Below, piece by piece: positions 1 to 28,228 of a stretch of DNA of 28,228 nt. A program made the translations under genes and the position numbers. The notes under the pieces are model-generated. The model ran no database searches and was not told where the DNA came from. It saw only the letters and a list, made by a program, of their open reading frames with translations. Source of the stretch: a virus (taxonomy: Duplodnaviria; Caudoviricetes); IMG/VR virus record IMGVR_UViG_3300025875_000768, positions 1 through 28,228 of that record. The stretch is one strand, 5' to 3'. Within the stretch, counting starts at the first letter, position 1. Every line of letters begins with the position of its first letter.

Positions 1-44
1 TCATAATCCTGGGGTCGGGGGTTCAAGTCCCTCCTCCGCTACCA
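1..44 (+). tRNA. 3' half of tRNA with CAU anticodon (probably tRNA-Met); 5' half lies outside the window; probable prophage attachment site
   Basis: TCATAA anticodon loop, GGGGGTTCAAGTCCCTC T-arm, acceptor strand CTCCGCT plus discriminator A and CCA at 42-44. Confidence 0.9.
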
Positions 45-1632
45 CCTTAACCGAACGGTCAGGACCACTCGCGAGATTACGGGGGGTCGTCGCCAAAGCG
101 ACGGCCCCACCGAGAGAAGTCAGCACCTCTATGCTCCAGGCGCCGTCGTTCAGGGGCGTGCACCGCACGTTTTCAATGATATCGCGCAGCCGCTCGACCA
201 CTTCGCGGCTCTGCTCGCTGCTTTCGTTCAGGTGCGCCGCCAGTGCGCGCACCCGCTTCCGATAGGTTTCGGCCACCTGCGGGTTGAGTGCGATCACCGG
301 CGTCGCATCGATCTCCTGCCGCTCCCGCAGCAGCGAATCGCGCTCGGCCCGCCGGGCGGCGAGCGCCTCTCGGATCTCTCCGAAGTCTGCGGCGCCTTCG
401 GCGATCGCGGCGATCAGGCGCTCGGTGGCCTTCTCAGCCTTGGCGATTCGCCGATCGAGGCCCGCGGTGTCCCGCTTCCGACTCGACTGCTTTGCCTCGA
501 TCTCGGCATGATAGCGGCCAACCAGCCGCGAGATTGCTTCCGGTGCGAGCAGCTGATCCGTGATGCCGGTGAGGACCCGCTGCTCAAGTTCGAGTCGCTT
601 GATCGTCGTTTTGACCTCGCACGTGCCGGCCTCGCGGTGCCGGGTGCAGCCGATACGGCCCCCACCGATGACCGTCATCGCGCCCCCGCAGGTGCCGCAG
701 CTGATCAACCCGGTCAGCAGGTAGCGAGGGCGACGGCGGCTCACGACGGTGCCCCAAGCCCGCTGCTCCGCCTCTTGCTGGGCTGCCTGCCAAAGCTCGT
801 CGGAAACGATTCTCAACTCGGGCATCTCGACCACGACGCGATCGTCGGTGGCGTTTGCGCGCGACACGCGCTTCCGGCTCTCCGGGTCCCGCTTCATGCT
901 GACGCGATTGTAGAGGTACCGGCCAGCGTAGACCGGGTTGCAAAGCACTCCGATCCCGCGCTCGCGATTGCCCGACAAGGTCGACGCCCGCCACTCTCCG
1001 CCGCGCGGTGAGGGAATGCCGTCGCGATTCAAGCCGTGGGCAATCATCTTCGGGCTGCGGCGGCCGACCACGTATTCGTCGTAGATCCGCCGGACGACGT
1101 CGGCCTGCTCTTCCTTGATCCGGCGCAGTCCTCGATCGAGCTGGCCGTCCTTGCCGATCTGCGTCACCACCTCGTAGCCGTAGGTCAGGCCGCCCGGCAC
1201 GCGGCCGCGGCCTACCGCGCCGCGCTGACCGCGGCGGATCTTGTCGGCGAGGTCCTTCAGGAACAACGCCCCCATCGTGCCCTTGAGGCCGATGTGCAGC
1301 TCGTTGACCCGGCCCTCGGACATGGTCTCGATCGCGACATCGGCGAACTCGAGCTGCTGATAGATTGTGGCGATGTCGGCCTGGTTGCGCGCAATCCGGT
1401 CGAGCGCTTCGGCGAGCACGATGTCGAAGGTGCCAGCGGCCGCGTCGGCGAGCATCGATGTCATGCCTGGCCGCCTGTTGTTTGCGCCCGAGATGGCGAT
1501 ATCGGTGTAGACGCCGGCGACTTCCCAGCCTTCGCGCTTGGCGCGCGCCGAGCAGAGGGCGATTTGATCCTCGGCGGAGTTGGCCGACTGCCGATCGGTT
1601 GAGAAGCGGGCGTAGATGGCGCAACGGGGCAT
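1..1632 (-). CDS. Large serine recombinase (resolvase + recombinase + zinc ribbon + coiled coil)
   Basis: AIYARFSTDRQ catalytic motif, DRIAR, YGY, CGTCGG..C..C zinc ribbon; AGGAG SD upstream of ATG 1632. Confidence 0.95.
   Translation of the reverse strand: MPRCAIYARFSTDRQSANSAEDQIALCSARAKREGWEVAGVYTDIAISGANNRRPGMTSMLADAAAGTFDIVLAEALDRIARNQADIATIYQQLEFADVAIETMSEGRVNELHIGLKGTMGALFLKDLADKIRRGQRGAVGRGRVPGGLTYGYEVVTQIGKDGQLDRGLRRIKEEQADVVRRIYDEYVVGRRSPKMIAHGLNRDGIPSPRGGEWRASTLSGNRERGIGVLCNPVYAGRYLYNRVSMKRDPESRKRVSRANATDDRVVVEMPELRIVSDELWQAAQQEAEQRAWGTVVSRRRPRYLLTGLISCGTCGGAMTVIGGGRIGCTRHREAGTCEVKTTIKRLELEQRVLTGITDQLLAPEAISRLVGRYHAEIEAKQSSRKRDTAGLDRRIAKAEKATERLIAAIAEGAADFGEIREALAARRAERDSLLRERQEIDATPVIALNPQVAETYRKRVRALAAHLNESSEQSREVVERLRDIIENVRCTPLNDGAWSIEVLTSLGGAVALATTPRNLASGPDRSVKVVAEEGLEPPTPGL
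83..108. terminator. GC-rich hairpin just downstream of the tRNA, inside the recombinase CDS
   Basis: GGGGTCGTCGC-CAAA-GCGACGGCCCC, 11-bp stem with one G-T pair; no U tract. Confidence 0.4.
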
Positions 1633-2728: not shown

Positions 2729-3960
2729 CGCGCGTCCTGCACGATGGCACCCCGCAGGATGGCGCGGCGGATCGAGCGCATCACCTGGACGCCCTCCGCC
2801 GTGAGCCCGGCCTCCTCCTTGATCAGCGCGTCGGCTTCCTGCCGGGCGCCGTCACACTGCTGCCCGATCGCTGAGCCGGCCCTAAGCCGGCCTGCCGACC
2901 GCGTCGACGGGGCAGAGCGCTGCTCCTTGTCCTTGCTGTCCTTGCGCGTCGCCGCCAGCATCGCCTTGCGATCAGGCCACCAAAAGCTAACCTCGGCGTC
3001 GCCGTTCTCCGGGATCTCGACGCACGCGACAACATCGCCGTCGGGCAGCTGCTCCCCCTCGGCCGGCGTGTTGACGTGCAGGATCCAGTCGGGCCCGCCA
3101 TACGTGCCTTCCGGCTTGCGGCTGATGAAGCGCATCTCGGGGCGGCCGAACCGCGCGCGGGTGTCTTCGCGCAGGTTGGCCACCTTCTCGTCGGCGAGCT
3201 GGCGCAGCAGCTTGTCATTGGTGACGATGCCGCTCTCGTCCTCGCCCTCGGCGAACAGATCGCGCTCGATTGAGCCGCCGGCCGCGAGGTAGGCGTCGCG
3301 GCCGACGAAGCGCAGCAGCCGGCCAGCCTCGCGATCGTCGACGCGCAACCAGGCGCGGATCGCTGCCGGCGTGCGCGCGTGCTCGGGCCCGGCCGACAGC
3401 GCCTCAAACGCGGCGAGCTGGCGTTCGTGATCGCCGGTGGCGCCGAACGCGCGGACCTGCTCGTCGGACAGCCGGCCGGCAGCGAAGGCCTCAAACACCG
3501 GCTTGGCGAGATCGCCCAGGCGCAGCGCGCGGTTGACCCACGTCAGCTCCTGGCCGTGGCGCGCGGCAATCTGCTCAGGCGTGTGGCCAAGGTTGCGCTC
3601 CCGCACGATCGCAGCGCACGTCTCGTAGGAGCGCAGGTTGCGGCGAAGCATGTTCTCGGACAGCGATCGCGCCACGATCTCTACGTCGGCCGCCTCGTTG
3701 ACGATCACCGGTACCGGAAAATCGCGCGGCAGATCGCCGCGGTCGACCAGCCGGCGGATGCTCCGGTACCGGCGCCCGCCAGCGAACACGCCGTAGAGCT
3801 TCACGCTGCCGCGCATCGGGTGGACCGACAGCGACTGCAGCACGCCCTCGGCAAGGATCGACGCCTCGAGCGCGGTGGTGGCGGAAGCGTCGGATTCGTT
3901 GGTACGGACGTTCAGCGGTGACAAACGCAGCTGGTCGATCGACAGCGTCATGCTAGTCAT
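2641..3960 (-). pseudogene. ParB/RepB/Spo0J-family protein, apparently 3'-truncated near 2730
   Basis: LSPLNVR, GVLQSLSV, AGGRRYR, SENMLR ParB N-terminal motifs; sequence after AIVQDARA becomes low-complexity out-of-frame text. Confidence 0.75.
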
Positions 3961-4843: not shown

Positions 4844-5108
4844 CAGATCATCCCCAGCGCTTGCATGTAGACCTCGAGGATCGCTTCCTCTTCCTGGAAC
4901 TCCTCTTTTTTCTTCTTGCGGATCGACAGGATGCGGCGGATCCCCTTAGGGTCGTATCCGCGGCCTTTGCCTCCGCGAACACGTTCTTGATGTCGTCGGC
5001 GAGGCCCTTCTTCTCTTCCTCGAGCCGCTCGGCGCGCTCGATGAGCAGGCGCAGTTCGTCGGCGGCGACGTGGCCTCCGCCCATGCCTTCCTGACGTTCT
5101 TCGGCCAT
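4843..5108 (-). pseudogene. gapR: GapR/DUF2312 nucleoid-associated protein homologue with a 1-nt frameshift near 4964-4968
   Basis: [34 protein letters not shown] then, in another frame, [40 protein letters not shown]; TGATG coupling at both ends. Confidence 0.85.
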
Positions 5109-10570: not shown

Positions 10571-11179
10571 ATGATCGCCGTCGGCTTGAGCCTAGTCGCG
10601 TCTGCTGCTTCCGCGTAGCTGACGTCACCTGCAATCGCACCGATGATTGCGGGTCAGCAGGACACGGCGGTGCTGCGGACGGGAACCAAAGTTCCGCTCA
10701 AGCTGTCGGAAACGCTCACGACCAAGGGCAAGAAGCTGCGGGTCGGCCAGCGTTTCCAAATGGAAGTCGCCGAAGCGGTGCTCGTCAATGGTCTGCCGGT
10801 GATCCCGGCCGGATCGCCCGCGACCGGGGAGATCACTGAGGTTCGAAACAAGGGCATGTGGGGCAAGTCGGGCCACCTCACCGCCCAGGTGCTGTATGTG
10901 ACCGTGAACGGGCGGCAGGTGAAGCTGAACGGTACGTTCGACGACAAGGGTGTGACCGGCACCGCCGGCGGCGTGGGCGCGATCGCGTTGGTCCCCGTCG
11001 CGGGCTTCCTCATGACCGGGACCAGTGCGACCGTGCCGCTTGGCGCGCCGGTGATGGCGTTTGTCGGCGAGGATATCCCGATCGCCGGCGCCACCGCAGC
11101 GCCGATGATGGTCAGCGTACCGGCGCCCGCGACGTCGCCCACCCTGACGCAGGCGGTCGTGACCAAGCCTGTGCAGTGA
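10571..11179 (+). pseudogene. Secreted beta-rich protein with an in-frame TAG (10616-10618) at the signal-peptide cleavage site
   Basis: MIAVGLSLVASAASA-TAG-LTSPAIAP in frame with ORF 10643..11179; TAG where CAG (Gln) would follow an A-S-A site. Confidence 0.7.
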
Positions 11180-11186
11180 CGATGGT

Positions 11187-11213
11187 GGCCGCGCGAGGAG
11201 ATCTCGCGCGGCC
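11187..11213. terminator. Perfect 11-bp hairpin after the secreted-protein gene
   Basis: GGCCGCGCGAG-GAGAT-CTCGCGCGGCC; no U tract. Confidence 0.45.
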
Positions 11214-11219
11214 GTCAGC

Positions 11220-11315
11220 GGGTATCAGCGGGGTACTACTAGCGAGAGGAGACCGTTCACTGACGGCTTTCCGCGGCTTTTCGCGACCGTGGCGGAGGGG
11301 TTCTCCGCCCTGGTC
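11220..11315 (+). repeat. att-like site copy A: GGGTA pair plus 31-bp palindrome
   Basis: GGGTA at 11220 and 11231; GACCGTGGCGGAG-GGGTT-CTCCGCCCTGGTC at 11285-11315. Confidence 0.85.
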
Positions 11316-11362
11316 TAGAGCTTCAGCGCGCTGTGACGCAGCAAATCTGCTATCGGCCAAGG

Positions 11363-12316
11363 ATGGATAGCACCGGACGTTTCAGCAACGAGCTTATGGC
11401 TCTCCGATCCCGAAGCTACGACCGCTGCCAAAGCTGTGGGAGCCAACTTCCCCGCGACGTTGCGGCATACGCGGGGTATGCAGCCGACGGTACTCCCCGA
11501 TACGTCGGGAACTGCTGTGTCAGCCAGATCAGCGAACTGGCCACCCACGTCTACTGGTGGTGGGAGGCGGATAAGCGCGTCGAATCTGAGACCAGCCTCT
11601 GGCGCTATATGGATCTGGCAAAGTTCATTCATCTGCTCGAAGAGGAAACGCTTTTCTTCGCCCGAGCAGATACGTTCAGCGACCCATTCGAGGGCGCCTC
11701 AGGGCTCTTGCAGAGAGAGGCTGAGTGGGACCGCTGGTACCTTGACTACTTTCGAAACGCGGTTCGCAATCCACCAGAAGGATATCCGCCGCCGCCTGAA
11801 GAGCAGGTCGAAGCCAATGCAAGACGGCTCCTTGCTTCCATCAGAGGCGGAGCGGAGCGCGATCGGCGAACCACGTTCGTGAGCTGCTGGCACGCCAACA
11901 CCGGGGAGTCGGAGGCACTTTGGCGGCTCTACTGCCCTCCTGGTACGGTCGGTGTCGCGATTGAGACGAGTGCGGACCGACTTTTCAAGGCACTCGACCC
12001 GTCCACTCGGATCGAGTTGGGAAAGGTCCAATACATCGATTTCAGAAAGTCGTTCGCCGGCTTCCATGATCGCATTTTCTGGAAGCGAAAATCGCTCAGC
12101 CACGAGGCGGAAGTCCGTGCCGTGACCACAGCCCATTTAGACGAGAAGTGGACGGGGCTCCCAGTCGCCATCAATCTTCAGACGCTGTGTAAATCAGTTG
12201 TGCCGTCGCCCTTTGCGCCCCCTTGGTTCACTGAAACCCTCAAGGCGCTCGTTGCGCGTTATCAAATGCAGCTTTCCTTGGTTGAGTCGGAGCTCCTGGC
12301 GCGGCCGTTCTTTTGA
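11363..12316 (+). CDS. DUF2971-family protein with N-terminal Cys-rich extension; candidate defence gene
   Basis: LWRYMDLAKF, LFFARADTFSDPFEG, FVSCWH..ESEALWRLY, GVAI, KRKSLSHEAEVR; CQSC..CC N-terminus; visibly less GC-rich. Confidence 0.8.
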   Translation: MDSTGRFSNELMALRSRSYDRCQSCGSQLPRDVAAYAGYAADGTPRYVGNCCVSQISELATHVYWWWEADKRVESETSLWRYMDLAKFIHLLEEETLFFARADTFSDPFEGASGLLQREAEWDRWYLDYFRNAVRNPPEGYPPPPEEQVEANARRLLASIRGGAERDRRTTFVSCWHANTGESEALWRLYCPPGTVGVAIETSADRLFKALDPSTRIELGKVQYIDFRKSFAGFHDRIFWKRKSLSHEAEVRAVTTAHLDEKWTGLPVAINLQTLCKSVVPSPFAPPWFTETLKALVARYQMQLSLVESELLARPFF

Positions 12317-12336
12317 GAGTTGAACTGGTGGCGCGG

Positions 12337-12433
12337 GGGTACAGCCCGGGTATCGGGCGCATGTACGCTGAAGGAGCGGGCGCGGTGCGTCAGCCAACTG
12401 GAGACCATGGCGGAGGGTGTCTCCGCCGCTGTC
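12337..12433 (+). repeat. att-like site copy B
   Basis: GGGTA at 12337 and 12348; GACCATGGCGGAG-GGTGT-CTCCGCCGCTGTC at 12403-12433. Confidence 0.85.
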
Positions 12434-12541
12434 CGAAGTAGCGAGATGCGCAGCCGACTTGCTCAACCGGCGGCCTACAGTCATCATTGCACGCTGGCCG
12501 TCAGACCGGCCGAACAGCGATCTGGATGCGAAGGCGTACTG

Positions 12542-13025
12542 ATGACGGCAGAGGAAATCGCGCGCGCGAGCCAAGCTAGAGCACGAGGCGCGGTCTGAGG
12601 AAGTAAGGCTCCGGATCGAGAACCAAGTCAAAAAGCTGGACACCCTTTTCAAGAATCTCACTCTGATAAACGGCGGCGCCATTGTCGCATTGTTCACGCT
12701 CTTGGGGAACAGCCACGAGGGACATCTGGCGGTGAATGCCCAGTCTATATGGTGGGCATTCGGAGCCTTTCCTGTTGGGCTGATCGCCACGATGGCAGCT
12801 TCCGGGTTGTCTATTCTCTCGCAATACCACCTCTCCATTCGAGCGAAGAGGCAGGCTTGGAACGAGCAGGCGAGCATGTTCGGCCTTCCGGCGGAGCACG
12901 ACGCCCTATCTCCATTCGAGCGGTCGGAACGCTTCGTGTCTGCAACCTGGTGCGCGGCAGCAGTGTCATTGCTGTCGTTCGTCGGAGGAGCGGCATGTGC
13001 GATGGATGGGGTATTGCCGCACTAA
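12542..13025 (+). pseudogene. 3-TM membrane protein frameshifted at a (CG)5 tract (12559-12568)
   Basis: MTAEEIAR.. continues in another frame as AKLEHEARSEEVRLRIENQVKKLDTLFKNLTLINGGAIVALFTLLG..; that frame has a TGA at 12543-12545 and no start of its own before TTG 12690. Confidence 0.65.
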
Positions 13026-13096
13026 GAGCTTCCCGGAGTGAGAGTGGCGCGACGGAGGTTGCGCCGTCCTCACAGGCGCGTATCTCCGCTACCGCC
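13009..13096 (+). repeat. att-like site copy C (degenerate left half)
   Basis: GGGTA at 13009; GTCCTCACAGGCG-CGTAT-CTCCGCTACCGCC at 13066-13096; shares GTATCTCCGCTAC exactly with copy D. Confidence 0.55.
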
Positions 13097-13217
13097 AACG
13101 CCCGCCCGTCAGTGGCCCCTTATGATCCGCGGATCGCCGGCTCAGGCTGTGCCGCCAATGCAACATCACGATCGGGCGAGCCGTCGAAATTGCCACTCTC
13201 GGCTCGCCCGTCTCAGA

Positions 13218-13760
13218 TCACGCCGCCGGGATCGGCACAGCAGTGAACGCGTTGACCATCTGTCCCGAAACCATGACGGCCGAATGGCCTGAGATCAGCA
13301 TGGAGCCGAGGAGTGCGGCCACAGTGTTGCCCTTGCCTTCTTGCCGCCACTTGCCCTTGAGAGCGTATTCCTGCCCGCGGACGGTGACGGTGTTGAAAGT
13401 GAGATCGAACTTGGCCGACTTGCCTCCGATGCCTTTGCCGGTCCGCCAAGTCACGGTAGCCTTCACCGGCGCGCCGCGCGGAATGATCACCACCCCGTTC
13501 TGAACAGCGTCGGCGGCGACCTGAAGCATCTTCACGTCGCCTTCTTTCATCTTTTTGGAGGTGATCTCCTCGACCGGCGTCACCTGCAAGACCGTGTCGG
13601 CGGGGAGTTCTGCGCCGCCAGAAGTTGCTGTCGTTGGTGTCTGCGCCGTCGGAGAAGGCCCCATGGGCAACTGAGTTGTCGAAGCTTGCGTCTGCCCGAT
13701 CGCGCCGGTTGCGCCCGTGACGAGCATCGTCGCCACGGCGATGTGGTGAACCTTCATCAT
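13218..13760 (-). CDS. Secreted beta-rich protein, distant paralogue of 10571..11179
   Basis: Signal peptide MMKVHHIAVATMLVTGATGAIG-Q; shared V..NG..IP.G.P..G..GKS..V.G..L.G..G pattern. Confidence 0.8.
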   Translation of the reverse strand: MMKVHHIAVATMLVTGATGAIGQTQASTTQLPMGPSPTAQTPTTATSGGAELPADTVLQVTPVEEITSKKMKEGDVKMLQVAADAVQNGVVIIPRGAPVKATVTWRTGKGIGGKSAKFDLTFNTVTVRGQEYALKGKWRQEGKGNTVAALLGSMLISGHSAVMVSGQMVNAFTAVPIPAA

Positions 13761-13872
13761 TTCCTCCCCTGTTGCCGACGAGTCGGCTTATCGATGTTAG
13801 TCACAGGAACCTGACGTCATCAAGTCTGGCACCCACGAGCCGTTTGGTTGCCCTGCGTAGCGCCAAAGGTGA

Positions 13873-13979
13873 GGGTATCGAGTGCTGAAACGCGGGGACT
13901 GCCTTGCATCAGAGGGCCTAAAAATCGCAGAAGAGCGTGCGCGTCACAGACCACGGCGGAGGGTATCTCCGCTACGGTC
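13873..13979 (+). repeat. att-like site copy D
   Basis: GGGTAT at 13873, GGGGAC at 13894; GACCACGGCGGAG-GGTAT-CTCCGCTACGGTC at 13949-13979. Confidence 0.8.
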
Positions 13980-14005
13980 GTCTATGGAATTGGCGCTGTT
14001 GGACA

Positions 14006-14020
14006 ATTCCCGCTATGTTC
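14006..14020 (+). promoter_or_regulatory. Degenerate LexA box
   Basis: ATTC-CCGCTAT-GTTC, one mismatch, spacer nearly identical to the box at 7811. Confidence 0.5.
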
Positions 14021-14051
14021 CTGTTGAGGGGAGCAGGGGTAAGCCGACACA

Positions 14052-14459
14052 ATGGGAGCGCCGTTTCGACTTTCGCCAACGATGGCCAGCCGCAAGGCGC
14101 TCGTGCTCACTTTCGTCGCCGGCTACATTGGCGATCATGGCTACAGCCCGAGCACCGGTGAGATTGGCGAGGCCTGCGGCATATCGCGGGAGCGTGCTCG
14201 CGTGCTGGTCCACAAGCTGGTGCGCGACGGCAAGCTGCTCCTGATCCCGGGAAAGCGCCGCACGATCGCACTCCCTGACAGCCAGGAAGCCGCTATCCAG
14301 CTGCTGCGCGAGCTCGGTTGGAAGATCGACCCTGATGCACACGCGGTCGCGGTCGCCATCCCGTTGGCAAAGAACAGGCTGACGCTGCTGCCTATGCTCG
14401 ATCACATCCCCGTCAGCGGTGACGGGAGCGGGCAGAATGGCGGAATTGACCCCAGTTGA
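14052..14459 (+). CDS. LexA-like N-terminal winged-helix protein lacking the peptidase domain
   Basis: VLTFVAGYIGDHGYSPSTGEIGEACGISRERARVLVHKLVRDGKL..PGKRRTI. Confidence 0.8.
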   Translation: MGAPFRLSPTMASRKALVLTFVAGYIGDHGYSPSTGEIGEACGISRERARVLVHKLVRDGKLLLIPGKRRTIALPDSQEAAIQLLRELGWKIDPDAHAVAVAIPLAKNRLTLLPMLDHIPVSGDGSGQNGGIDPS

Positions 14460-15327
14460 GGCGAAGGTGATGCGCGCGATCGTCGCGCGCGAGCACAAGC
14501 ATGCACTGGCGGAGAAGCGAGAGGCGAAGGCGGCCTATGCCGCAGCGCACGCGGCCGCACCGTCAAAGGTGGGCTGGTCGACCAAGCCCGCGCCCAAGCG
14601 GAAGCCCAGCAAGGCCGAGCAGGCAATCGCCGCGAGCATCGCGGACGAGAAGCGTGCTCGCGCCCGCAAGCACCCGGACGTCGCTGCGGCTGAGCGCACG
14701 CTGCGCAAGAGCCGGGCCGAGCTGCTCGAGCGCTGGGATCACAAGCGCGAGGGAACGCCCGAAACACACGAGCATCATGCCCAAACCCGGGAAGGATCGC
14801 TCGCGCGCCTGTACCAGTCCGGCTCGATCGATGCCGTGCAGCTCGCGTCTGCCGTGGATATCGCATCTGTCGCCGAGCGCATTGCCGCCCCTGTTGCCGT
14901 CAAAACTGCCAGCCTTGAGGCCCGCGTCGACGTGACCCGCCTCGGCGACGGCACGTTCTACGAAAAGCTCAGCCAGGTGCGGCGGGAGATGGCGTACACG
15001 CGGTGGCGTGCTGAGGTGCATGGGCCGATCGGCGCCGTGCTCGACATGATCGTCGGCGATGCTGTCGGGTTCACGCTGGTGGCGCACCGTTATCGCATGG
15101 GCCATCGTCGCGCCAAGCAACTGCTGCTCGACGCGCTCGACCTTTGGCCGAGGATGTTGGCGGACCCGACGGCTGGGCGCGCAGGCCCGGGCAGATCATC
15201 CGGCGGCTGGCGCTGCTCGCCGGTGGCGCCGGCAAGATCGATGACGCCTCGCTCGATGCGCTCGACGCTGCCTGCCCGTACAACGTCTCGATCTACCTCG
15301 ACCAGCAGACCACAGCGCGCGACCTGA
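14437..15327 (+). pseudogene. Phage protein in the late-regulator (Q-like) position, probably truncated near 15160 by a deletion
   Basis: GTPETHEH..GSLARLYQSGSID..LLLDALDLWP, then out-of-frame S/T/R-rich text overlapping the tail ORF. Confidence 0.55.
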
Positions 15328-16880
15328 TCCAGAAGATCGCCGCCAGCGTGAACGCCGTGGCGCTGGTGACGTGGACCGGGCGGCTGGTGGTCGTGCCGGT
15401 TGCGATCGGGACCGCGGCAACGCCGGCGACCTGGAACGACACCGCAGTCTGGGTTGATGTCGGCAGCTGGCAGGACCGGACGGTGCCTTTGGGCGGCGCG
15501 CCCACCCTGACGCTGGCTGCGGACGGGTCGGCCCTCCCGGCCGTCAGCACGGTCAAGCAGATCGCGATCGACGCGCCGTACCAGAAGCTCGCCATTGGAG
15601 CGGCACGCGCCTGGACGGTGTATCAGCTGGCAGACATCGCGTTCGAGGCCCCGCTGGTCGACCGGGGCCGCTACGACAATGCCGAGACGTACCGCGAGGG
15701 CAACATCGTCGACCTCGCGAATGGCTCGCGGTGGTTGTTCATCAATGTCGCCCCGAAAGCGGGCGTGGTGCCCGGCACCGATGGCAACGAGTATTGGACC
15801 AACCTCAGCCCTGCCACGAGCGCGGTGGACATCGCTTACGAGGACGGGACCCCTCTCGAGGATCTGAAGCCTGCCGAGCCGGGCGCGACCGCGGGCGCGC
15901 CGGCGGGCACGCGTGTTGGCGATCGGGATGCGGCGACGGTGATCGCAAGCCTCGACATCAACGCAGCAGGCATCCTGTCGCAGGCCCTGCGACAGGACGA
16001 TCTGCTCCTGTTGTTGGACGCGCGCACGCTGGTCGAGGGGCAGGCCGTCGGAACCACGTTCCTGTCGTTCCGGAACACGCAGCAGAAGACGAACAGCGCA
16101 CTCGCTTCGCAGCTCGATCTGATCGGTGCCAAGAACGCTGACGGGACGGGCTGGAACCTCAACCTGTCCAGCGTCATGGTCGGCCCTGTCTCGCTCGGCG
16201 ATCGCTTCGGCGGGCTGGACGCCGCGGTCGGCACGCTTTCGACAGACTTGCAGGAGCTTGGGGCCAAGTACGACGGCACGGACGCCACCGTCACCTTCCT
16301 GCGCGAGGCACTGGCGAGCCCCGATGGTGGCTACGCGAACGCATTGCTGCGTGCCGATGCCGATGGGGTGTTCGGGGCGTTCGCGATCACCGTCGACGGG
16401 CCGCAGCGGCTGTCCCAGATCAAGATGGTGGCCGACGAGCTGCACTTCGTCGATCCGAACAACGGCAACCCGATCCAGCCGTTCAGCATTGTCGGCGGCG
16501 CTGTCATCGCGACCAACTTCCAGGCGGACATCATCACGTACGGGGCGCTGGTGCAGCGCTTTACCGACGTCGGGCAGCAGCACCTCGACCCCGCAGGCTG
16601 GTACCAGGAGATCCCCGGCGGGCTGATCATGATGGGCGGCAAGTACCGGCAGACGATCAACCGCGAAGTCCAGCTCACCGTCAGCTTCCCGAAGCCGTTC
16701 CCCAGCCAGGTGCTTTCGGTCGGCGTGGTCCCGCACCTCAACACCTATTCCTCGGCGCGCGACTTGTGGCTCCAGACGGTGGGCGAGCCCTTGCTCACCT
16801 CCTTCTCGGTGCAGACCCAGGCGGCATCGAGCGACAACATGACCCTGGACGGCTTCGACTGGTGGGCGTGGGGGAAGTGA
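15144..16880 (+). pseudogene. 5'-truncated phage tail/host-specificity protein with gp53-like C-terminal domain
   Basis: No SD; begins mid-domain at GPDGWARRPGQIIRR; EPGATAGAP, K.VAD.L.FVDP, PGGLIM..G..V.FPKPFP..W.A.G C-terminus. Confidence 0.7.
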
Positions 16881-19051
16881 TGCCAGATCCAACCATTTCC
16901 GACGTGCTCGCCGGCGTCACCGCCTTGCTCGGCCCCCGCGACCTGACGCAGCGCGAGTTCGCCGACTGGGTCGCCGGTGCGGTTGACGGCGGTCCGGACG
17001 GCGACGGCATTTTCCCGCTGACCGACAGCACCGGCTTTGTCCGCAGCTACCCGTCGATCCCGAAGATCGCCAGCCTGCTCGGCATCGATATCGGCGGCGA
17101 TCCCACAACCGGCGGCGGGACGGACGGGTCGCCGCCGGCGGTGCTGCCGATCCGACTGGTGGGGGCGCTCGGCTTCGACCTGGCAGCGGGCCTGGGCGAG
17201 ACGGTCGCCGAGATTCTGGGCGTGCCGCGCGGGGCCGCGCCGACCGTCACACCGGCCGGCGTTGTTGTCATCGCCGGCGACGAGCATTCGGGCTGGCGGC
17301 TGGTCCGCGGCACGGGCACAGCCGGCACCGGCAGCCTCACGGTAAGCGTCGCGGCGGCCGGCGGCATCAGCGCCGTCGCTGACCTCGCCATCGCAGCCGC
17401 GCCGACGGTGGCATCGGTGCTCGGCACAATCGCAGTCGCGGAGAAGAGCGGCGCGGCACTCGCCGACTACCAGGTGTCGGTGACGCTGCCGTGGAAAGCC
17501 GGCATGGCGGCCGACTTTGCCAACGTCGTCTTCCGCGACCAGCCGAGCGGCGCGGTGCTGGTGCCCTACATCGTCCCGGAGAGCGTCGTTGCCGGCACGA
17601 CCTGCAAGCTGTGGCTCAAGCTGCCGGCGATCGGGGCGAGCGCCACCCGCACGCTGGACTACGGCACCTGTGCCACCACGCTGCCGCGCTCCACCGCGCG
17701 CGGCCGGCGCGTGTTCGACTTCTTCGACGACTTCGAGGTGGGATGGGACCCGTCCTTGTGGGCCGCCCACACCGAGGGCAAGGGCGGCGAGTGGGCCGGC
17801 TATGTCGACCATTGGCGGTTCGTTGCCCCGACGGTGCTGATCTCAGGCGGCAAGTTCAACCAGGGCAGCGTCGGGGACGGCGCTTATTTCTATGGCGGCC
17901 GCGACGACGGTCAAGGCGTGGACGGGCTGATCTTCAAATACAGCTATGCAGGCGTCTACACCGACAGCTTCCCCGGTGTGTCACACAACAACGGCCTGAG
18001 CGTGCGCGCGAACGGCAATATCCTCACCTGCAGCGCTGGCACGGTGGTGACCGGGCTGTCGGGTCAGAGCGTCGTCGCCGAGATCACGCCGCAAGGGAAG
18101 AAGGTCCGCACCTGGGACTTCGGCGACAAGCTCTATTTCGGGGCCGCGCCCAACGGGTGCTACCGCAACGAGATCGCCGGCGGGTTCGAGTTTATCGTCA
18201 TGCAGGGCGCTACCTCACGGCTCGTCGCGCAGATCCTACGCTGCATGGACGATGGCACATGGTCGATCAGCCCCGAGTCCTACGAGCTGAACATCGCCAA
18301 GGTGCCGCAGGTCCGGGGTCAGAACGTCTGGTACCAGGATGGCATTCTCCAGCTGGTCACCGACGACGTGTCGCCGTCGGGCTCCTATTCCGCGGATGCC
18401 TATGGCACGGTCTTGCGCTGGCGGCTGGAGGCGGACGGCACGGGCACACCGATCGACAGCTGGCGGCACCTGCCGGGAGGCGAACGCGAAGCGATCACGT
18501 TCGATGGCACCAACTGGCTGTTCAGCACGCATGCCGGCACGCTCAACCGCCTCGTCATCGACAGCACCCGATCCGGTCGGGTGATGACTGCTGGCGTCGC
18601 CGGCCAGAAGGTAGCCAACCTCGCGCGGGCGGCGTTCGCCGGCTCATACGCCGTGTCCTGGCGGATGGCGACGATCGGTGCGTCTCCGCAATTCGGGCTG
18701 GCCGACAGCTTTACAGCGGAAACCGGCATGGTTGTGCTGGAAGTCCGTGCGTCGACATCCATGTCCAGCCGGCGACAGAACGGCGCGGCCGTCAACGTGA
18801 CGACCTATGCGGCGGCCAACGATGTCGCGAACTATCACACCTATGAGATCCAGAAGCGGCCGACGTCGGCGACGTTCGTGCGCGACGGCGTGACCTTGGC
18901 AACGGAGACGGCAGGGGTGCCCGACATGCCCCTCTATCTCCGCTTCAGCGCCAACGCGCTCGACGGCAGCGGTGGATCATGTGTGCTCGCCTGTGACCAG
19001 GTGTTCGTGCGCAAACTTGCCGGCGCAGAGCCGACGGTCACGGTCAACTGA
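16880..19051 (+). CDS. Tail fibre/receptor-binding protein with DUF2341-like region and beta-rich C-terminal domains
   Basis: TGATG coupling; GGPDGDGIFPLTD N-terminus; DYQV..MAADF..LWLKLP..YG..VFDFFDDFE. Confidence 0.75.
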   Translation: MPDPTISDVLAGVTALLGPRDLTQREFADWVAGAVDGGPDGDGIFPLTDSTGFVRSYPSIPKIASLLGIDIGGDPTTGGGTDGSPPAVLPIRLVGALGFDLAAGLGETVAEILGVPRGAAPTVTPAGVVVIAGDEHSGWRLVRGTGTAGTGSLTVSVAAAGGISAVADLAIAAAPTVASVLGTIAVAEKSGAALADYQVSVTLPWKAGMAADFANVVFRDQPSGAVLVPYIVPESVVAGTTCKLWLKLPAIGASATRTLDYGTCATTLPRSTARGRRVFDFFDDFEVGWDPSLWAAHTEGKGGEWAGYVDHWRFVAPTVLISGGKFNQGSVGDGAYFYGGRDDGQGVDGLIFKYSYAGVYTDSFPGVSHNNGLSVRANGNILTCSAGTVVTGLSGQSVVAEITPQGKKVRTWDFGDKLYFGAAPNGCYRNEIAGGFEFIVMQGATSRLVAQILRCMDDGTWSISPESYELNIAKVPQVRGQNVWYQDGILQLVTDDVSPSGSYSADAYGTVLRWRLEADGTGTPIDSWRHLPGGEREAITFDGTNWLFSTHAGTLNRLVIDSTRSGRVMTAGVAGQKVANLARAAFAGSYAVSWRMATIGASPQFGLADSFTAETGMVVLEVRASTSMSSRRQNGAAVNVTTYAAANDVANYHTYEIQKRPTSATFVRDGVTLATETAGVPDMPLYLRFSANALDGSGGSCVLACDQVFVRKLAGAEPTVTVN

Positions 19052-19095
19052 AGCCGAGGAAGAAGGACCGGCGATGACGACAATCGACCAAGGCT

Positions 19096-19476
19096 ATGGC
19101 TGGTGAGGGCGCTGTGACCGCGCACCTGATCCCGATCCTGCGGCTGCTGGTACTGGTCGGCTGGAGCATGGTCACGCTGTGGGCGGCCCCGGCCTATCGC
19201 CGGGTGGTGTTCGGCCACACCGCCGACGGCGACTTCAAGCAGGTCGCGCTTGCCGTGGTCGGCCTGGCGCTGGTTTATTTCCAATTGAACGCTTTCGGGC
19301 TGCCGCCTCGAACCGATGATGGCACGGCTGCCGGCCTGCTGCTGCTCGCGGTTGGTGCTGGCATCGTCTTCGTGTTCATCCACCTGCCGCGCACGCCCGA
19401 CGGCCATAAGCGCAGCCTCGCGCTCACCTATCTGGCGATCCTGGTCGCCTGCGTTGTCGGAGGCAGCCTTGGATGA
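19096..19476 (+). CDS. Small 4-TM membrane protein (lysis region); start may be GTG 19114
   Basis: Hydrophobic segments; ATGA-coupled to the next gene. Confidence 0.65.
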   Translation: MAGEGAVTAHLIPILRLLVLVGWSMVTLWAAPAYRRVVFGHTADGDFKQVALAVVGLALVYFQLNAFGLPPRTDDGTAAGLLLLAVGAGIVFVFIHLPRTPDGHKRSLALTYLAILVACVVGGSLG

Positions 19477-21819: not shown

Positions 21820-21965
21820 TGGGCCTGCATGGGCTCGGCCTAGCCCTGGGCAGGCGCATCGCGGTCCATATCGGCCTCGCCTCCGGCGCGAAGCCGCGGC
21901 CGCCCGCGACTTGGGACGACACCACCACCTGGAATGACAACCTCGCTTGGAGCGATGCCGCATGA
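21819..21965 (+). CDS. 48-aa putative head-spike adaptor (GLGL N-terminus plus WxD repeats)
   Basis: MGLHGLGLALGRRIAVHIGLASGAKPRPPATWDDTTTWNDNLAWSDAA*; TGATG and ATGA coupling on both sides; absent from the ORF track. Confidence 0.7.
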   Translation: MGLHGLGLALGRRIAVHIGLASGAKPRPPATWDDTTTWNDNLAWSDAA

Positions 21966-23284
21966 CCGTGCTCACCACCATCCCCAACGGAGCGTCCAAC
22001 AAGGACATCCGCGAGACCCTGAACTCCGTGTTGGCGCGCATCCTCGCCCTGGAAGCCGGCGGGAGTTCCACACCGACCCCCACGCCGACCCCCACACCGG
22101 TTCTCACCGTCTCCGTCGCCGGGATCGGTGACAGCGTCATGGCTGGCGAGAAAGCGGACGGTCACACGGCGATCGGCGGCATGAGCCTGGGCAGCGGTGT
22201 GACCGTCCTGAACACCGGCGTCTCGGGGGAGCCACTGACCACGAGCCTTGACCGGGTTTACTGGGGCAGTGTCGCTGCGGCGCGATCGACCACAACGACG
22301 GCCATCGCGATCGTTCAGGGTGGCACCAACGACCTGGCGGACAATGGCGGCAGCCTGTCGGCGGACCGCCTGTACGCCGGTGCCACGACGCCGGTCGTCG
22401 CCGCGCTCAAGGCGCAGGGTTTTTATGTCATCGTGGCGACGCTGCTGCCTCGCAAAGCGGGCGTGTTTGGCTGGTCGGCTGCGCAGGAGGCGCAGCGCCT
22501 CTCGTACAACGGCAAGGTGCGCGCGAACGGGGCGGGAGCCGATTACGTCATGGACTTGGCCGGGCATGCCACAATGGGCGATGCGGCCGATCCCACGAGC
22601 AACATGGCGCTGTACGCCGATGGCGTTCACCCGACCGCCGCGGGACAGGATGCGCTGGCGCCGACCTATGCCGCAGCGGTCAGGGCCGTGGCGCAGGCGC
22701 ATCCGACGTTGCGGCCTTATGGTGTCGAGGCGGGCAATAATCTTCGTTTTGGCAGCTTGGCCAACATGGCTGAAACGGGAGACGCGGCAACGGGCTGGAC
22801 ATATTCCGCGACGGCCGACACCGGATATGGCCCGACCGCTGGGCGGGGCTTGGGAGCGGTCAGTCTGGCAGCCGGAGCGGTCGGATGGATCGAGATGGTT
22901 GCACCCGCGGTCGCTGCGACAGGGCCTATCCTCGGCCTGCAGACGAGCGCGACCTTTGCCAACTACGATACGATCAACTTCGGCGTTTACATCGACGGAG
23001 GTTACAACGGCGAAGGTGCGCCATTCGACGGCGGCCCGACGATCCTCTCTGCTGGCGCTCCGACTACGCGAAACGGCGCCGCTTTCGCGATCACGGCTGG
23101 CGACAAACTCCGGCTCCGCAGGGCCGAAACCGGAATGTACGCCGAAGCATCACACGATGGCGCGATCTGGACGCGAGTGCACAGCTTCGCGGGTGTTGGC
23201 TCGCCCCTGTATGCGGTCGCAATGTCGCCCAGTTCCGCGGCGACGGCGCGCGTGCTGAAGCCGAGGTTCGCGGTGCCGGCCTGA
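21962..23284 (+). CDS. SGNH/GDSL hydrolase (probable polysaccharide O-acetyl esterase) with PT linker and C-terminal beta domain
   Basis: GDS, NTGVSG, GGTND, DGVHP blocks; TPTPTPTPTP linker. Confidence 0.88.
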   Translation: MTVLTTIPNGASNKDIRETLNSVLARILALEAGGSSTPTPTPTPTPVLTVSVAGIGDSVMAGEKADGHTAIGGMSLGSGVTVLNTGVSGEPLTTSLDRVYWGSVAAARSTTTTAIAIVQGGTNDLADNGGSLSADRLYAGATTPVVAALKAQGFYVIVATLLPRKAGVFGWSAAQEAQRLSYNGKVRANGAGADYVMDLAGHATMGDAADPTSNMALYADGVHPTAAGQDALAPTYAAAVRAVAQAHPTLRPYGVEAGNNLRFGSLANMAETGDAATGWTYSATADTGYGPTAGRGLGAVSLAAGAVGWIEMVAPAVAATGPILGLQTSATFANYDTINFGVYIDGGYNGEGAPFDGGPTILSAGAPTTRNGAAFAITAGDKLRLRRAETGMYAEASHDGAIWTRVHSFAGVGSPLYAVAMSPSSAATARVLKPRFAVPA

Positions 23285-23294
23285 GAATGACGGC

Positions 23295-23322
23295 TTGCCT
23301 GTCGCTAGGGGCCCCGTATATC
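23295..23322 (+). promoter_or_regulatory. Putative sigma70 promoter for the acyltransferase gene
   Basis: TTGCCT-N16-TATATC just before ATG 23330 with no SD, suggesting a leaderless moron transcript. Confidence 0.4.
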
Positions 23323-23329
23323 CGCCTCC

Positions 23330-24412
23330 ATGCCAGCCTCTGCCACGCCGTTTAGCAGTCGCCCCAAGCACTTTCTCGAGCTGGACGGACTTCGCGGGAT
23401 CGCCGCCCTGTCCGTGGCTCTTTTTCACCAGCGCGCATGGTTCGGAGGCGATACCTTCTTCGGCCACGGTTACCTGGCGGTAGACTTCTTCTTCATGCTG
23501 AGCGGGTTCGTGCTCGCCTATGCCTACGAGGAGCGGTTGAGGCAGCCTGGCGCCTTCTGGCCGTACGTCCGCGACAGGATTGTGCGCCTGTACCCGATGC
23601 TTGCCATGGGAGCCTTGGTGGGGGCCGTGGCGGTCAGCACCGGTCCTGATAAGGTCGCGCGATCGGCGGCGGACCTCGGCGCGCTCACCCTGCTGAACGG
23701 CCTGGCGCTGCCGGCGTTGTGGCTCGCACTGCCCTTTCCAATTAACGGTGCCGTCTGGTCGCTGTTCTTCGAGATCATAGCCAATCTCGGCTTCGGGCTA
23801 GTAGGTCCATACCTAAGCGACCGGCGCCTTCGCATTTTCATCGTCGCGTCCGCACTCTGCATGCTGACTCTAAATCACCACTACCACATGTTCGGCTTCG
23901 GGTGGGCGAGGGATACGATGCCGGCCGGGCTAGTCCGCGTGAGCGTCAGCTTCGCCATCGGCGTCGCCCTATGCGATCTGCACGGGCGTGGCATCCTCGC
24001 CGACGGCGGCAGACGATGGTGGGTCGCGCCCGTGCTCGTGGCTACGTTCGCCTCGTTGCGGCTGTCGAGCTCCTTGTCGGTTGTCTACGATCCGCTGGTC
24101 GTCTTCCTCGTTTACCCGGTCCTGATCCTAGCGGGCGCTGGCAGTGCTGAACTGATGCCGCGCTTTGCTCGCCTCATGGGGGACATATCCTATCCCTTCT
24201 ACCTCCTGCATGTGCCCGCGTTCAGCCTGCTCCAGCTCGGGGTTATCAAGGCCGGATTGACCATCACGCCGGGCTTGGTGCTTCTAAACTTCGTCCTGAC
24301 GGTCGCGGCGACATGGCTGGTTCTCACGATCTACGACAAGCCCGTCCGCTCCGCATTGCGAGCGAGGATCGGCAGTCGGTCACATCGGTCCGAGACAGCT
24401 CAACAGGCGTAG
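23330..24412 (+). CDS. Acyltransferase-3 (OafA-like) membrane O-acyltransferase
   Basis: LDGLRGIAA..V..FH, GYLAVDFFFMLSGFV, RIVRLYP, WSLFFE, GDISYPFYLLH. Confidence 0.92.
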   Translation: MPASATPFSSRPKHFLELDGLRGIAALSVALFHQRAWFGGDTFFGHGYLAVDFFFMLSGFVLAYAYEERLRQPGAFWPYVRDRIVRLYPMLAMGALVGAVAVSTGPDKVARSAADLGALTLLNGLALPALWLALPFPINGAVWSLFFEIIANLGFGLVGPYLSDRRLRIFIVASALCMLTLNHHYHMFGFGWARDTMPAGLVRVSVSFAIGVALCDLHGRGILADGGRRWWVAPVLVATFASLRLSSSLSVVYDPLVVFLVYPVLILAGAGSAELMPRFARLMGDISYPFYLLHVPAFSLLQLGVIKAGLTITPGLVLLNFVLTVAATWLVLTIYDKPVRSALRARIGSRSHRSETAQQA

Positions 24413-24489
24413 CTGGAGCATCGCGGCACGGTGTCCTCCGTGTCCGTGTCCGCCCGAGACATTTGCACATCACCAGAGAAGGAATGGCC

Positions 24490-26417: not shown

Positions 26418-26497
26418 TGTGGGGGCGCGCAACCCACCAAACTTTCCGATCCAGCCGGCGGATCCAACAGCGAGGCCCGAAAACTATTCTGCTCGCG

Positions 26498-26596
26498 TGG
26501 GGGTATCCTTGGGGGTATCCGCGAAGTTCCAGCAAAGTGATGTGGCGGTTTTCTGCCGTTTTTACTCGCCAGTCTGTTAGGTGCCGGGCCCAACCA
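26498..26596 (+). repeat. attR-like site: tandem TGGGGGTATCC arm repeats plus degenerate tRNA-3'-like core
   Basis: TGGGGGTATCC at 26498-26508 and 26510-26520; TGCCGGGCCCAACCA ending 26596. Confidence 0.65.
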
Positions 26597-26676: not shown

Positions 26677-26775
26677 GGGTACCGGCCGGGGTATCGCGTC
26701 GCTAACGACCTGCCGAAACCAACGGAAAATCGCGCCTCCCGCGCGACCATGGCGGAGGACTCCTCCGCCATGGTC
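26677..26775 (+). repeat. att-like site copy E (perfect palindrome) upstream of the tyrosine integrase
   Basis: GGGTA at 26677 and 26689; GACCATGGCGGAG-GACTC-CTCCGCCATGGTC at 26745-26775. Confidence 0.88.
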
Positions 26776-26784
26776 CACAGTAAA

Positions 26785-26992
26785 TTATGTGCCGGTCAGC
26801 GCAGCGTCAATCATCCGCGTCCATTGCTGGCGGGTACATTGCCCGGCCGCCAGCATCGCCGCCGTAGGCTGTCGCATGGCTGCGATGACGACCTTCGCGT
26901 CCTCCGCATACATGCGCCAGGTCGTAGGCACCCCCGTTGTCGCCGCTCGCCATCGCCTCCGCGACCCGCTCGACCATCGTTTTCCCGGCCAT
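26785..26992 (-). pseudogene. Small phage protein frameshifted in a G5 tract (26931-26935)
   Basis: MAGKTMVERVAEAMASGDNG joins VPTTWRMYAEDAKVVIAAMRQPTAAM..W..MIDAAL if one G is removed; GGAGG SD. Confidence 0.6.
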
Positions 26993-27016
26993 CCCGTCCT
27001 CCCAGGGGAGCAGTCT

Positions 27017-28228
27017 ATGCTGACCAACGCCGCGGTGAAAGCCGCGCGGCCGCGCGCGGCCGCCTACAAGCTGGCCGACGAGCGCGGCCTGCACCTGTTC
27101 GTCGCGCCCAACGGGCGCCGCTCATTCCGCTGGCGCTTCCGCTGGGCGGGGAAGGAGCAGCTGCTGACGATCGGCGAGTGGCCGGCCGTCTCGCTCGACC
27201 AGGCGCGCGATCGCGCCGAGCTCGCGCGCGAGCAGCTCGGCCGCGGCGAGGATCCGCGAACCATCGGAGCTCGAGGTCCGGAGGTCCGGAGGTTCGATGA
27301 TATCGCCCGGCGCTGGCACGCCCACATGCGGCCGCGCTGGACGGAGGTGCATGCCAGCGACGTCCTCGCGAGCCTCGAGCGCGACGTGTTCCCCGCGATC
27401 GGCGCGATGCCGCTGGCCGCCATCACCGCGCCGGTGGTGCTGAACGCGCTGCGCGGTGTCGAGGAGCGCGGCCGCCTGGAGACGGCGCGCCGCGTCCGGC
27501 AGCGGATCTCGGCCGTGTTCGTGTTCGCGATGTCCGAGGACCTGGTCGACAGCGACCCGGCCGCGCGCGTCGGGCGCATGCTCACACCGCCGGCCCCGGC
27601 CCGCCACCAGCCGGCGCTGCTCGACATCGCCGACGCGCGCGAGCTGCTCGCCGCGGTCGACCAGCTGGCGGCCGCGCCGGCGATCAAGCTGGCCTCGCGA
27701 TTCCTGGCGCTGACCGCCGTTCGCCTCGCCGCGGTGCGCGGCGCGCGGTGGTCCGAGATCGAGGACTTGGACGGCGCGGCGCCGTTGTGGCGCGTGCCGG
27801 CGGCGCGCATGAAGCTGGCGGCGGCGAAGAAGGGCGACGCGAAGAACGATCACTTGGTGCCGCTCGCGCCGGCGGCGGTGGAGATACTGCACGCTGCCCG
27901 GAGCCTGCGTCACGAAGGTGGACTAGTTTTCCCGGGCAGGAGCGGGACTAGTCCACTCGGTGAGGCGGCGATCGGCGCGCTGTACGATCGCGCGGGCTTC
28001 GCCGGCCGGCACGTGCCGCACGGCTGGCGCGCGACGTTCGCGACGATCATGAACGAGGCATGCGGTGGCGCCGACCACGCGCTGATCGATCAGGCGCTGG
28101 CGCACACGCCGAAGAACAAGGTGGAGGCGGCCTACAACCGGGCGGCGCTGCTCGATCGACGTCGTGCGCTGTTCGTTGCTTGGGCGGAGCAGCTGACCGG
28201 AGAGCGCGCGTCGACGCCGTTTGGCTAG
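27017..28228 (+). CDS. P4-like tyrosine integrase with N-terminal arm-binding domain
   Basis: MLTNAAVKAARP..YKLADERGLHL..LTIG.WP..SL..AR; TAVR, RMK, HGWR, LAH, AAYNR catalytic residues; GGGGAG SD before ATG 27017. Confidence 0.95.
   Translation: MLTNAAVKAARPRAAAYKLADERGLHLFVAPNGRRSFRWRFRWAGKEQLLTIGEWPAVSLDQARDRAELAREQLGRGEDPRTIGARGPEVRRFDDIARRWHAHMRPRWTEVHASDVLASLERDVFPAIGAMPLAAITAPVVLNALRGVEERGRLETARRVRQRISAVFVFAMSEDLVDSDPAARVGRMLTPPAPARHQPALLDIADARELLAAVDQLAAAPAIKLASRFLALTAVRLAAVRGARWSEIEDLDGAAPLWRVPAARMKLAAAKKGDAKNDHLVPLAPAAVEILHAARSLRHEGGLVFPGRSGTSPLGEAAIGALYDRAGFAGRHVPHGWRATFATIMNEACGGADHALIDQALAHTPKNKVEAAYNRAALLDRRRALFVAWAEQLTGERASTPFG

Follow-up and report, generated by a model that had tools for sequence, protein, structure and literature searches.

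A cassette system of Sphingomonas phages and the tyrosine integrase that may drive it

The sites of the array and their wider family

How do single accessory genes come to stand one by one between copies of the same site inside a prophage? This question is raised by IMG/VR record IMGVR_UViG_3300025875_000768 (Duplodnaviria; Caudoviricetes), a 28.2-kb prophage-like sequence that we analyzed from position 1 to 28,228; this whole stretch of 28,228 nucleotides is referred to as the window. Its gene order starts with a serine recombinase and continues with the early and immunity region, the array and the genes for tail fibres and lysis, followed by a tyrosine integrase, here called Int1. A sequence-only reading of the window had proposed that the array consists of integron-like gene cassettes, separated by a palindromic site with GGGTA arms and stacked by an arm-binding tyrosine integrase rather than by IntI and attC. 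Our analysis indicates that the sites are probably recombination sites of Int1, which would add, remove and exchange core-bounded accessory units at two fixed platforms, A and B. The cassette system of Sphingomonas phages is real and widespread. It is apparently undescribed; no description was found in the literature searched, which comprised main texts only, with most subscription journals outside its scope.

The sites of the window and the integrase are as follows:

11220..11315, + strand: site A1, first of platform A; arms GGGTA at 11220 and 11231, core 11285-11315, spacer GGGGTTC
12337..12433, + strand: site A2; arm pair at 12337 and 12348, core 12403-12433, spacer GGGTGTC
13009..13092, + strand: relic half-site; single arm (13009); of the core, the right half is kept over 13 nt (13080-13092) and the left half is absent
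13873..13979, + strand: site A3, last of platform A; arm at 13873 (-76), weak motif at -55, core 13949-13979, spacer GGGTATC
26677..26775, + strand: site B (platform B); arms at 26677 and 26689, perfect 31-bp palindromic core 26745-26775, spacer GGACTCC
27017..28228, + strand: Int1, 403-aa tyrosine integrase, putative recombinase of the sites (from domains, catalytic residues and tree)

The palindrome had been placed at four positions, three of which hold: the cores at 11285, 12403 and 13949 depart from it by 2, 3 and 3 mismatches over 26 positions, whereas the copy at 13066 has more than 10 and is a half-site only. No palindrome match with six or fewer mismatches occurred in 200 Markov-simulated windows. 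The profile score at 13066 was -1.9, whereas true copies scored 31-35 and the best background position 8.7. A stretch of 13 nt there (13080-13092) agrees exactly with the right half of the core at 13949, as was the case in 0.8% of 3000 shuffles; this copy is probably a decayed relic. Relative to their cores, arms lie at -65/-54 (11285), -66/-55 (12403) and -68/-56 (26745), with a single arm at -57 at 13066. The pairing of arms 11 bp apart in the first two copies was correctly seen, and the reported distance of 54-57 bp upstream stands for 11285, 12403 and 13066 but not for 13949, where the exact GGGTA is at -76 and a weak motif alone is at -55. What the site inventory of that supposed IntI/attC-free system had missed was a fifth, perfect copy at 26745, and with it platform B; this site lies 272 bp ahead of the integrase ATG.

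Across the family, a site consists of GGGTA arms on one side followed by the core. In 106 paired-arm sites the core reads GGCGGA, a 7-bp spacer (mostly GGGNNYM) and TCCGCC, its invariant letters having been fixed beforehand by the search pattern, while the outer symmetry is looser. The arms had been described as always on the same side of the core, and they are one-sided across sites: 373 GGGTA motifs were found at -30 to -80 of 209 sites versus 15 reverse motifs in the 200 nt downstream. Their peaks at -35, -45, -55/56 and -66 are about one helical turn apart. A downstream arm score above threshold was obtained at 2 of 121 array sites; a downstream arm of a different sequence is conceivable. 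An A/T-rich motif between arms and core, which we take to resemble a site for integration host factor (IHF), may bind a bending protein.

Outer core pairs covary across elements, and the covariation was lost with shuffling inside elements (p = 0.3 for five pairs together; p = 0.008 for one outer pair alone). Therefore, the half-sites are likely double-stranded protein-binding sequences with lineage-specific preferences. Recognition as an attC-like hairpin was considered and rejected, the covariation being a sequence preference at the level of elements, although this test is indirect. A search of the window and seven loci against Rfam gave 0 matches at gathering score, with chance-level hits only in the array, and the cores were not called as terminators.

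The arm-plus-core pattern was present in 72 of 401 Sphingomonas genomes, with a maximum of 14 overlapping matches in one genome; its backward control gave 0 matches. A stricter two-arm pattern had 0 matches in a sample of 400 other Alphaproteobacteria, and the bare core occurred 0-1 times in each of four site-less genomes, which is the level of chance. Among viral contigs, at least 132 stretches carry the arm-plus-core pattern, many with three or four direct copies. As there are few or no copies outside site-bearing genomes, the sites are not a host repeat family. A repetitive extragenic palindromic (REP) element or a host attB was rejected on the same grounds, bare cores being at chance level and arm-plus-core matches absent from 329 of the 401 genomes, and no tRNA or other host target of the sites was found. 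A genome-wide REP or terminator family unlinked to the integrase clade had been named as one of the outcomes that would overturn the cassette proposal; the genome scan, the bare-core counts and the clade link described below all speak against such a family.

Linkage to Int1, junctions at the core and a proposed mechanism

Int1 has an Arm-DNA-bind_3 domain (PF13356, presumably the former DUF4102), a Phage_int_M domain (PF22022) and a catalytic domain. Residues R236, K272, H335, R338, H363 and Y373 are present, and the catalytic R, K, H and R are invariant in 49 of 49 aligned Int1 rows. With arm-binding, core-binding and catalytic domains and the RKHRHY residues, Int1 belongs to the P4-like integrases; its only NCBIfam match at 1e-5 was PRK09692, and TIGR02249 was not matched.

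Comparison of sequences firmly ties the site family to this enzyme. Homologues of Int1 with 54% identity or more had a site within about 2.1 kb upstream at 31 of 31 loci (four loci representing the same prophage twice), and those with 49% or less had none at 6 of 6 loci (L029, L198-L202; relatives are given here by our own handles). In a quick tree of 74 rows, 50 fell into the Int1 clade (SH-aLRT 95), and a site was found upstream of 48 of these. One of the exceptions, G004, has a degenerate site under the cut-off. In the sister clade, Int2, a site was found upstream of 0 of 19 rows, just 6 of which had enough upstream DNA to score. The Int2 genes lie at tRNA-Tyr, -Asn, -Gln, -Thr or -Ser and have GGGGGCA arms ahead of their start, and other phages, such as the window and G004, have a serine recombinase in place of Int2. 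These comparisons suggest that Int1 is a retained paralogue of the tRNA-targeting Int2, with an arm word of its own and no role at the prophage ends. Integrase relatives in named genomes are mostly from Sphingomonas. In a bin titled Prosthecochloris (L196), the prophage's Int1 shows, at its 5' end, 94% identity to its counterpart in a Sphingomonas genome (L195), and the bin assignment is probably a binning error.

To describe the layout we used 15 Int1 prophages that were read whole or nearly so and had been picked for showing several sites. All 15 have both platforms. Platform A, with one to seven sites, lies between the immunity region and a LexA-like gene, and platform B, with one to three, between lysis or Dam genes and Int1; all 82 sites are on one strand. 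The two platforms bracket the late module in every case and are 24-33 kb apart in 12, and unrelated head-tail modules sit between the same platforms in different phages. The largest array has eight sites (L097). Other arrays (L206, L207 and L221) are in prophage remnants or beside non-phage genes.

The positions at which relatives diverge are likewise established by alignment. Among 214 sites, 66 pairs had common upstream DNA only, and their identity dropped to background at core position 26; ten pairs had common downstream DNA only, and identity climbed from that same position (the pairs are not all independent). Spacer positions 15-18 often differ in pairs with common upstream DNA, which places the crossover between core positions 12 and 26. 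Individual cases are similar. L140 and L012 are 100% identical from the core on, with unrelated DNA upstream, and a unit of about 392 bp, which starts at the core, is preceded in each of four genomes by a different, unrelated arm region. The backbones of G005 and G177 are mostly 93-95% identical (86% in one block) while their arrays differ, with divergence at platform B from core position 26. L389 equals L212 plus a 1251-bp core-to-core unit with a Crp-family gene, the flanks being 89% and 95% identical; of the two cores that bound this unit, one has arms and the other has none, and the spacer at the empty site of L212 is that of the distal core. A check for gene content shifting at the cores in relatives had been recommended, and such shifts were thus found, including this one empty/filled pair.

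Spacers with one mismatch between them were in excess within elements (49 versus 28.5 expected), and identical spacers numbered 3 versus 5.9-7.6 expected; of 87 A-B pairs of one genome, 0 share a spacer. Arms are present at the first site of 42 of 43 arrays, as compared to 32 of 43 for the last site (Fisher p = 0.003), which would be expected if units enter at the first site.

We infer catalysis by Int1, circular intermediates and a spacer rule from these patterns. In such a mechanism, Int1 would bind the GGGTA arms and the core, looping the DNA, and the core would recombine with another core, with or without arms, through an internal exchange of double-stranded DNA. Lambda Int recombines two attL sites in vitro. 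The lambda enzyme requires an identical 7-bp overlap (PMC1807965). With some tolerance, matched spacers would similarly favour the Int1 reaction, such that identical neighbours would be excised and near-matches would insert and stay; the first site, which is armed, would be the main entry point for new units. Platform A comes after the immunity region and platform B closes the late region beside Int1, and the spacer mismatch between A and B would protect the late genes from an A x B deletion. Integration of the prophage into its host would be left to Int2 at tRNA genes or to the serine recombinase.

Several observations weigh against this mechanism. Neither a recombination product nor a circle was seen. 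The clean empty/filled pair is one among 326 sites and could also be read as a crossover of two phages at matching cores, and only 5 of 110 unit kinds recur; outside the window, none of its units turned up between cores. Identical spacers are only weakly depleted (p = 0.16 plain, 0.03 class-aware), the armed fractions are inflated as the loci were gathered with an arm-requiring pattern, and the tree is a quick version with SH-aLRT support only. One provirus (G001), whose array without a recombinase we liken to a cluster of attC sites lacking integron integrases (CALIN), has five sites and no Int1. In addition, the segment 3' of the last core differs in close relatives without a second core: past the last B core similarity returns at the Int1 ATG (0 to about -26), and past the last core of platform A it returns just ahead of the LexA-like gene. 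An additional process is therefore needed at the end segments, and their turnover could be accounted for by capture at one end and subsequent ordinary recombination within the conserved gene. Finally, a second repeat family rather than the core marks the breakpoints between L205 and L206 and the right end of the 392-bp unit, which lies about 12 bases beyond the core. The proposal of integron-like cassettes is thus borne out as regards the link to the integrase clade and the shift of content at cores, but not as regards the arrival of every unit by integration at a core, given this second repeat family and the end segments that turn over without a right core.

Alternative explanations and known systems

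The main rival, which we regard as unlikely, is that Int1 is primarily a resolvase of dimers of the excised phage circle, acting at twin sites, and that the arrays are a by-product, as in plasmid dif modules. It is the main rival because one-sided accessory repeats recall TnpI/IRS, where they confer selectivity for resolution (PMC2847244). The chemistry would be the same as in gene capture by Int1, the position of Int1 beside the replication initiator fits, and the twin sites of a dimer share a spacer whereas the A-B pairs of one genome do not. However, a resolvase needs one site, and the Int1 prophages of our multi-site sample all have two platforms, with up to eight sites per array. The polarity of arms along the arrays and the diversity of the cargo also fit repeated acquisition, not resolution.

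Less probable still is that the site is a regulatory or structural element (a terminator, operator or RNA) and that the genes are morons exchanged by homologous and illegitimate recombination. Boundaries are equally sharp at the Int1 start codon, where there is no site, the platforms bracket the late region and cargo lies in both directions, all of which would suit such an element. On the other hand, the Rfam and terminator results and the loss of covariation within elements do not, and the core duplication around an insertion, the phased arms like those of Int2 and the link to a single clade would be left unexplained. We give slightly less credit still to a main reaction between A and B, in which Int1 excises or swaps the whole late module of head, tail and lysis genes and the small units are incidental. 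The flanking of the late module, the spacing and common strand of the sites and the unrelated head-tail modules between the same platforms are as this would predict, but the A-B pairs never share a spacer and no collapsed A-B element was noticed in the locus list. Moreover, elements without a head-tail module (the window, G009, G012 and L212) keep both sites and both module edges, and these losses are therefore not products of A x B recombination.

Capture of units by Int1 resembles known systems in part. As in integrons and CALINs of phages, small accessory units each end in a site (PMC9892861, PMC8618304), the recombinase is beside one platform with a second platform far off, and entry at the first site is inferred; Shewanella prophage M16-3, for example, has two attI-headed arrays (PMC9892861). 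Site-bounded units that are gained and lost at the sites are thus common to both. In contrast, the integron enzyme is IntI, which has no arm-binding domain, whereas Int1 has one and does not match TIGR02249. No pair of attC ends (RYYYAAC...GTTRRRY) starts in 11000-14200 on either strand. Integron sites act as folded single strands, while here hairpin covariation within elements is lacking by our indirect test, and integron cassettes are co-oriented, while here 84 cargo open reading frames (ORFs) run along the sites and 80 opposite (longest-ORF calls, some of which may be spurious). Judged from sequence, then, the Int1 system is not an integron: the enzyme, the attC boxes, the hairpin signal and the gene orientation all fail.

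We take the site sequence to be unlike dif, and TnpI is not known to have an arm-binding domain. The P4-like IntSXT integrases share the domain set of Int1, paired arm repeats at a fixed distance from the core and a 7-bp overlap (PMC8138268). Their att sites, however, are at the element ends in a tRNA or gene end and the enzyme moves its own element, whereas the sites described here are internal, repeated and armed on one side, with no host target found, and the Int1 gene lies outside the segments it would move. As the sites are internal and the tRNA integrases of the sister clade have other arms, this is not an integration module. Tandem accretion and cis-mobilizable elements (CIMEs) likewise involve integrase-less segments between att sites of one tyrosine integrase (PMC5704250). 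CIMEs are decayed integrative and conjugative or integrative and mobilizable elements that keep attL and attR at a chromosomal gene end, unlike the gene-sized units at two phage-internal platforms, in which the second arm set is absent (2 of 121 sites passing the threshold). In pdif modules of Acinetobacter plasmids, resolution-type sites also bound accessory modules, but the enzyme is the host XerCD and dif sites are inversely oriented (PMC9771954); the enzyme of the present system is encoded by the phage, and its sites form direct repeats. Tn4430 has a core and two one-sided accessory direct repeats bound by its recombinase TnpI, in a single site per transposon that serves cointegrate resolution (PMC2847244), while the Int1 sites are repeated.

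The chances are roughly even that a duplicated phage integrase has here become a dedicated gene-capture enzyme and that the integron strategy arose independently, with double-stranded one-armed sites, a 7-bp spacer lock and two docking platforms, defence and fitness genes being traded between phages, prophage remnants and chromosomal islands across Sphingomonas. How accessory and defence hotspots of temperate phages are filled is mostly unexplained. In this case a specific site, linked to a specific enzyme, forms the boundaries, so that a single protein and short DNA substrates would suffice to test the process. Searches based on attC miss this system, which is common within its genus and whose arrays are a source of candidate defence genes. 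A lambda-type integrase that recombines at sites armed on one side would, if true, be mechanistically unusual.

Cargo, a second repeat family and other features

The units of the window and other features are as follows:

11363..12316, + strand: unit 1, 317-aa protein matching PADLOC PDC-S31 (1e-18, candidate defence); Pfam DUF2971 sub-threshold, E 0.13
12542..13025, + strand: unit 2, small hydrophobic protein (from reading of the ORFs)
13218..13760, - strand: unit 3, 180-aa protein of no known family (Pfam, pairwise alignment)
1..1632, - strand: large serine recombinase ending in a tRNA-like sequence (domain scan)
14052..14459, + strand: LexA-like helix-turn-helix gene, a conserved backbone gene 3' of platform A in relatives
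26785..27027, - strand: small ORF separating site B from the start of Int1; in close relatives the slot is filled by unrelated DNA

Each interval had been said to hold a single gene, and each does have one main ORF, with a G+C content of 0.59-0.62 versus 0.67-0.73 in four backbone stretches. The label DUF2971 for unit 1 did not stand, the Pfam match being below threshold. That the genes are unrelated needs qualification for unit 3, which shares 30% identity over 119 aa with a gene just outside the array (10643-11179); the two are paralogues on opposite strands. In unit 2, the frame of the ATG at 12542 stops at 12598, and a second frame is open from 12546 to 13025 with its first in-frame start, a TTG, at 12690; the gene is probably frameshifted or shortened at its 5' end. 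The unit 1 protein has 272 homologues at E <= 1e-30. An armed core was seen at 0 of the 28 loci inspected among 68 metagenome loci, unit 1 was absent from the 42 site-bearing genomes searched, and no viral relatives of units 1 and 3 were found. Since homologues of unit 1 occur elsewhere without cores, the cargo is drawn from a wider pool.

Over all arrays, 117 distinct intervals represented 110 kinds, with a median length of 967 bp and a G+C content of 0.57, and 67 of the 117 have a single ORF of 70 aa or more. Of 138 longer ORFs, 44 were submitted to PADLOC and 11 matched, including an AbiL pair, RmrA/RmrT, a type IIG restriction enzyme, a TIR protein and unit 1 of the window; some of these are general ATPase matches, and most other cargo proteins have no family. 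Cargo named by Pfam comprises a glyoxalase, a Crp regulator and a class A beta-lactamase with LysR, the latter two genes lying in a unit between two cores (L181:15860-17698, in G009).

A second family of short palindromic repeats, of two types and roughly ATGTCCG..TGG..AAAGCGGAC, was noticed just 3' of many cores, ahead of many arms and around accessory genes in other genomes (L205:600-640, 2480-2520, 3555-3600 and 5030-5070; L206; L214:7345; L220:7151 and 11185; L249-L256 flanks). It occurs 3' of 26 of 209 cores versus 6 of 1398 backbone windows, and also flanks several homologues of unit 1; it was not detected in the window array. The right end of the 392-bp unit is inside such a repeat. L205 and L206 contain 99.9%-identical segments in changed order, as one excision at one repeat type and re-entry at the other would give. 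Their breakpoints lie inside the second-family repeats, and core shuffling was rejected as the explanation; an assembly artefact could also account for the reshuffle, as L205 holds Ns and duplications. The presence of this family at breakpoints and beside cores argues for two overlapping shuffling systems in some arrays. No recombinase was identified for it, and nothing was found in the literature for its sequence words.

Occasional sites scored in opposite orientation in or beside arrays (L192:8072, L220:6181 and L059:3289), and in L192 one segment is armed at both ends, as after inversion between cores. The head-tail module is gone, with both platforms, Int1 and lysis or tail-fibre genes kept, in several prophages independently, namely the window (at about 15100-15350), G009, G012 (L215-L216), L212 and L220; of the 33 window proteins scanned, none was recognized as a terminase, capsid or portal protein. 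Such elements may represent decayed prophages retained for their cargo. A single unitig of 8336 bases (10847-19182) covers the array and its join to the tail-fibre gene with 0 differences, and an assembly error is unlikely because it spans both, although its run is possibly the source of the record. The contigs of two DNA runs listed no joints at cores, which has no bearing on activity.

The serine recombinase is likely the prophage's own integration enzyme, distinct from Int1. ARAGORN found no tRNA at the end of its gene, which we take to be tRNA-like. The replication initiator and right att site of the window are placed by analogy with relatives, as the sequence ends at the window edges. In G004, G005, L188 and L194 the initiator is at the far end of the prophage, past Int2 or across att from the serine recombinase; this gene order suggests that it may be brought together with the early operon on excision. 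The region 26462-26595, which had no match in five genomes, contains another GGGTA arm pair (26501 and 26513) that lacks the usual core. This region also fits the attC end pattern, the stretch after the arms presumably resembles a tRNA 3' end, and the region is possibly a relic att half-site of another element. Finally, an accessory block 3' of the lysis genes (21947-26163), with no bounding cores, encodes a GDSL-like hydrolase, an acyltransferase 3 and a family-less 616-aa ORF.

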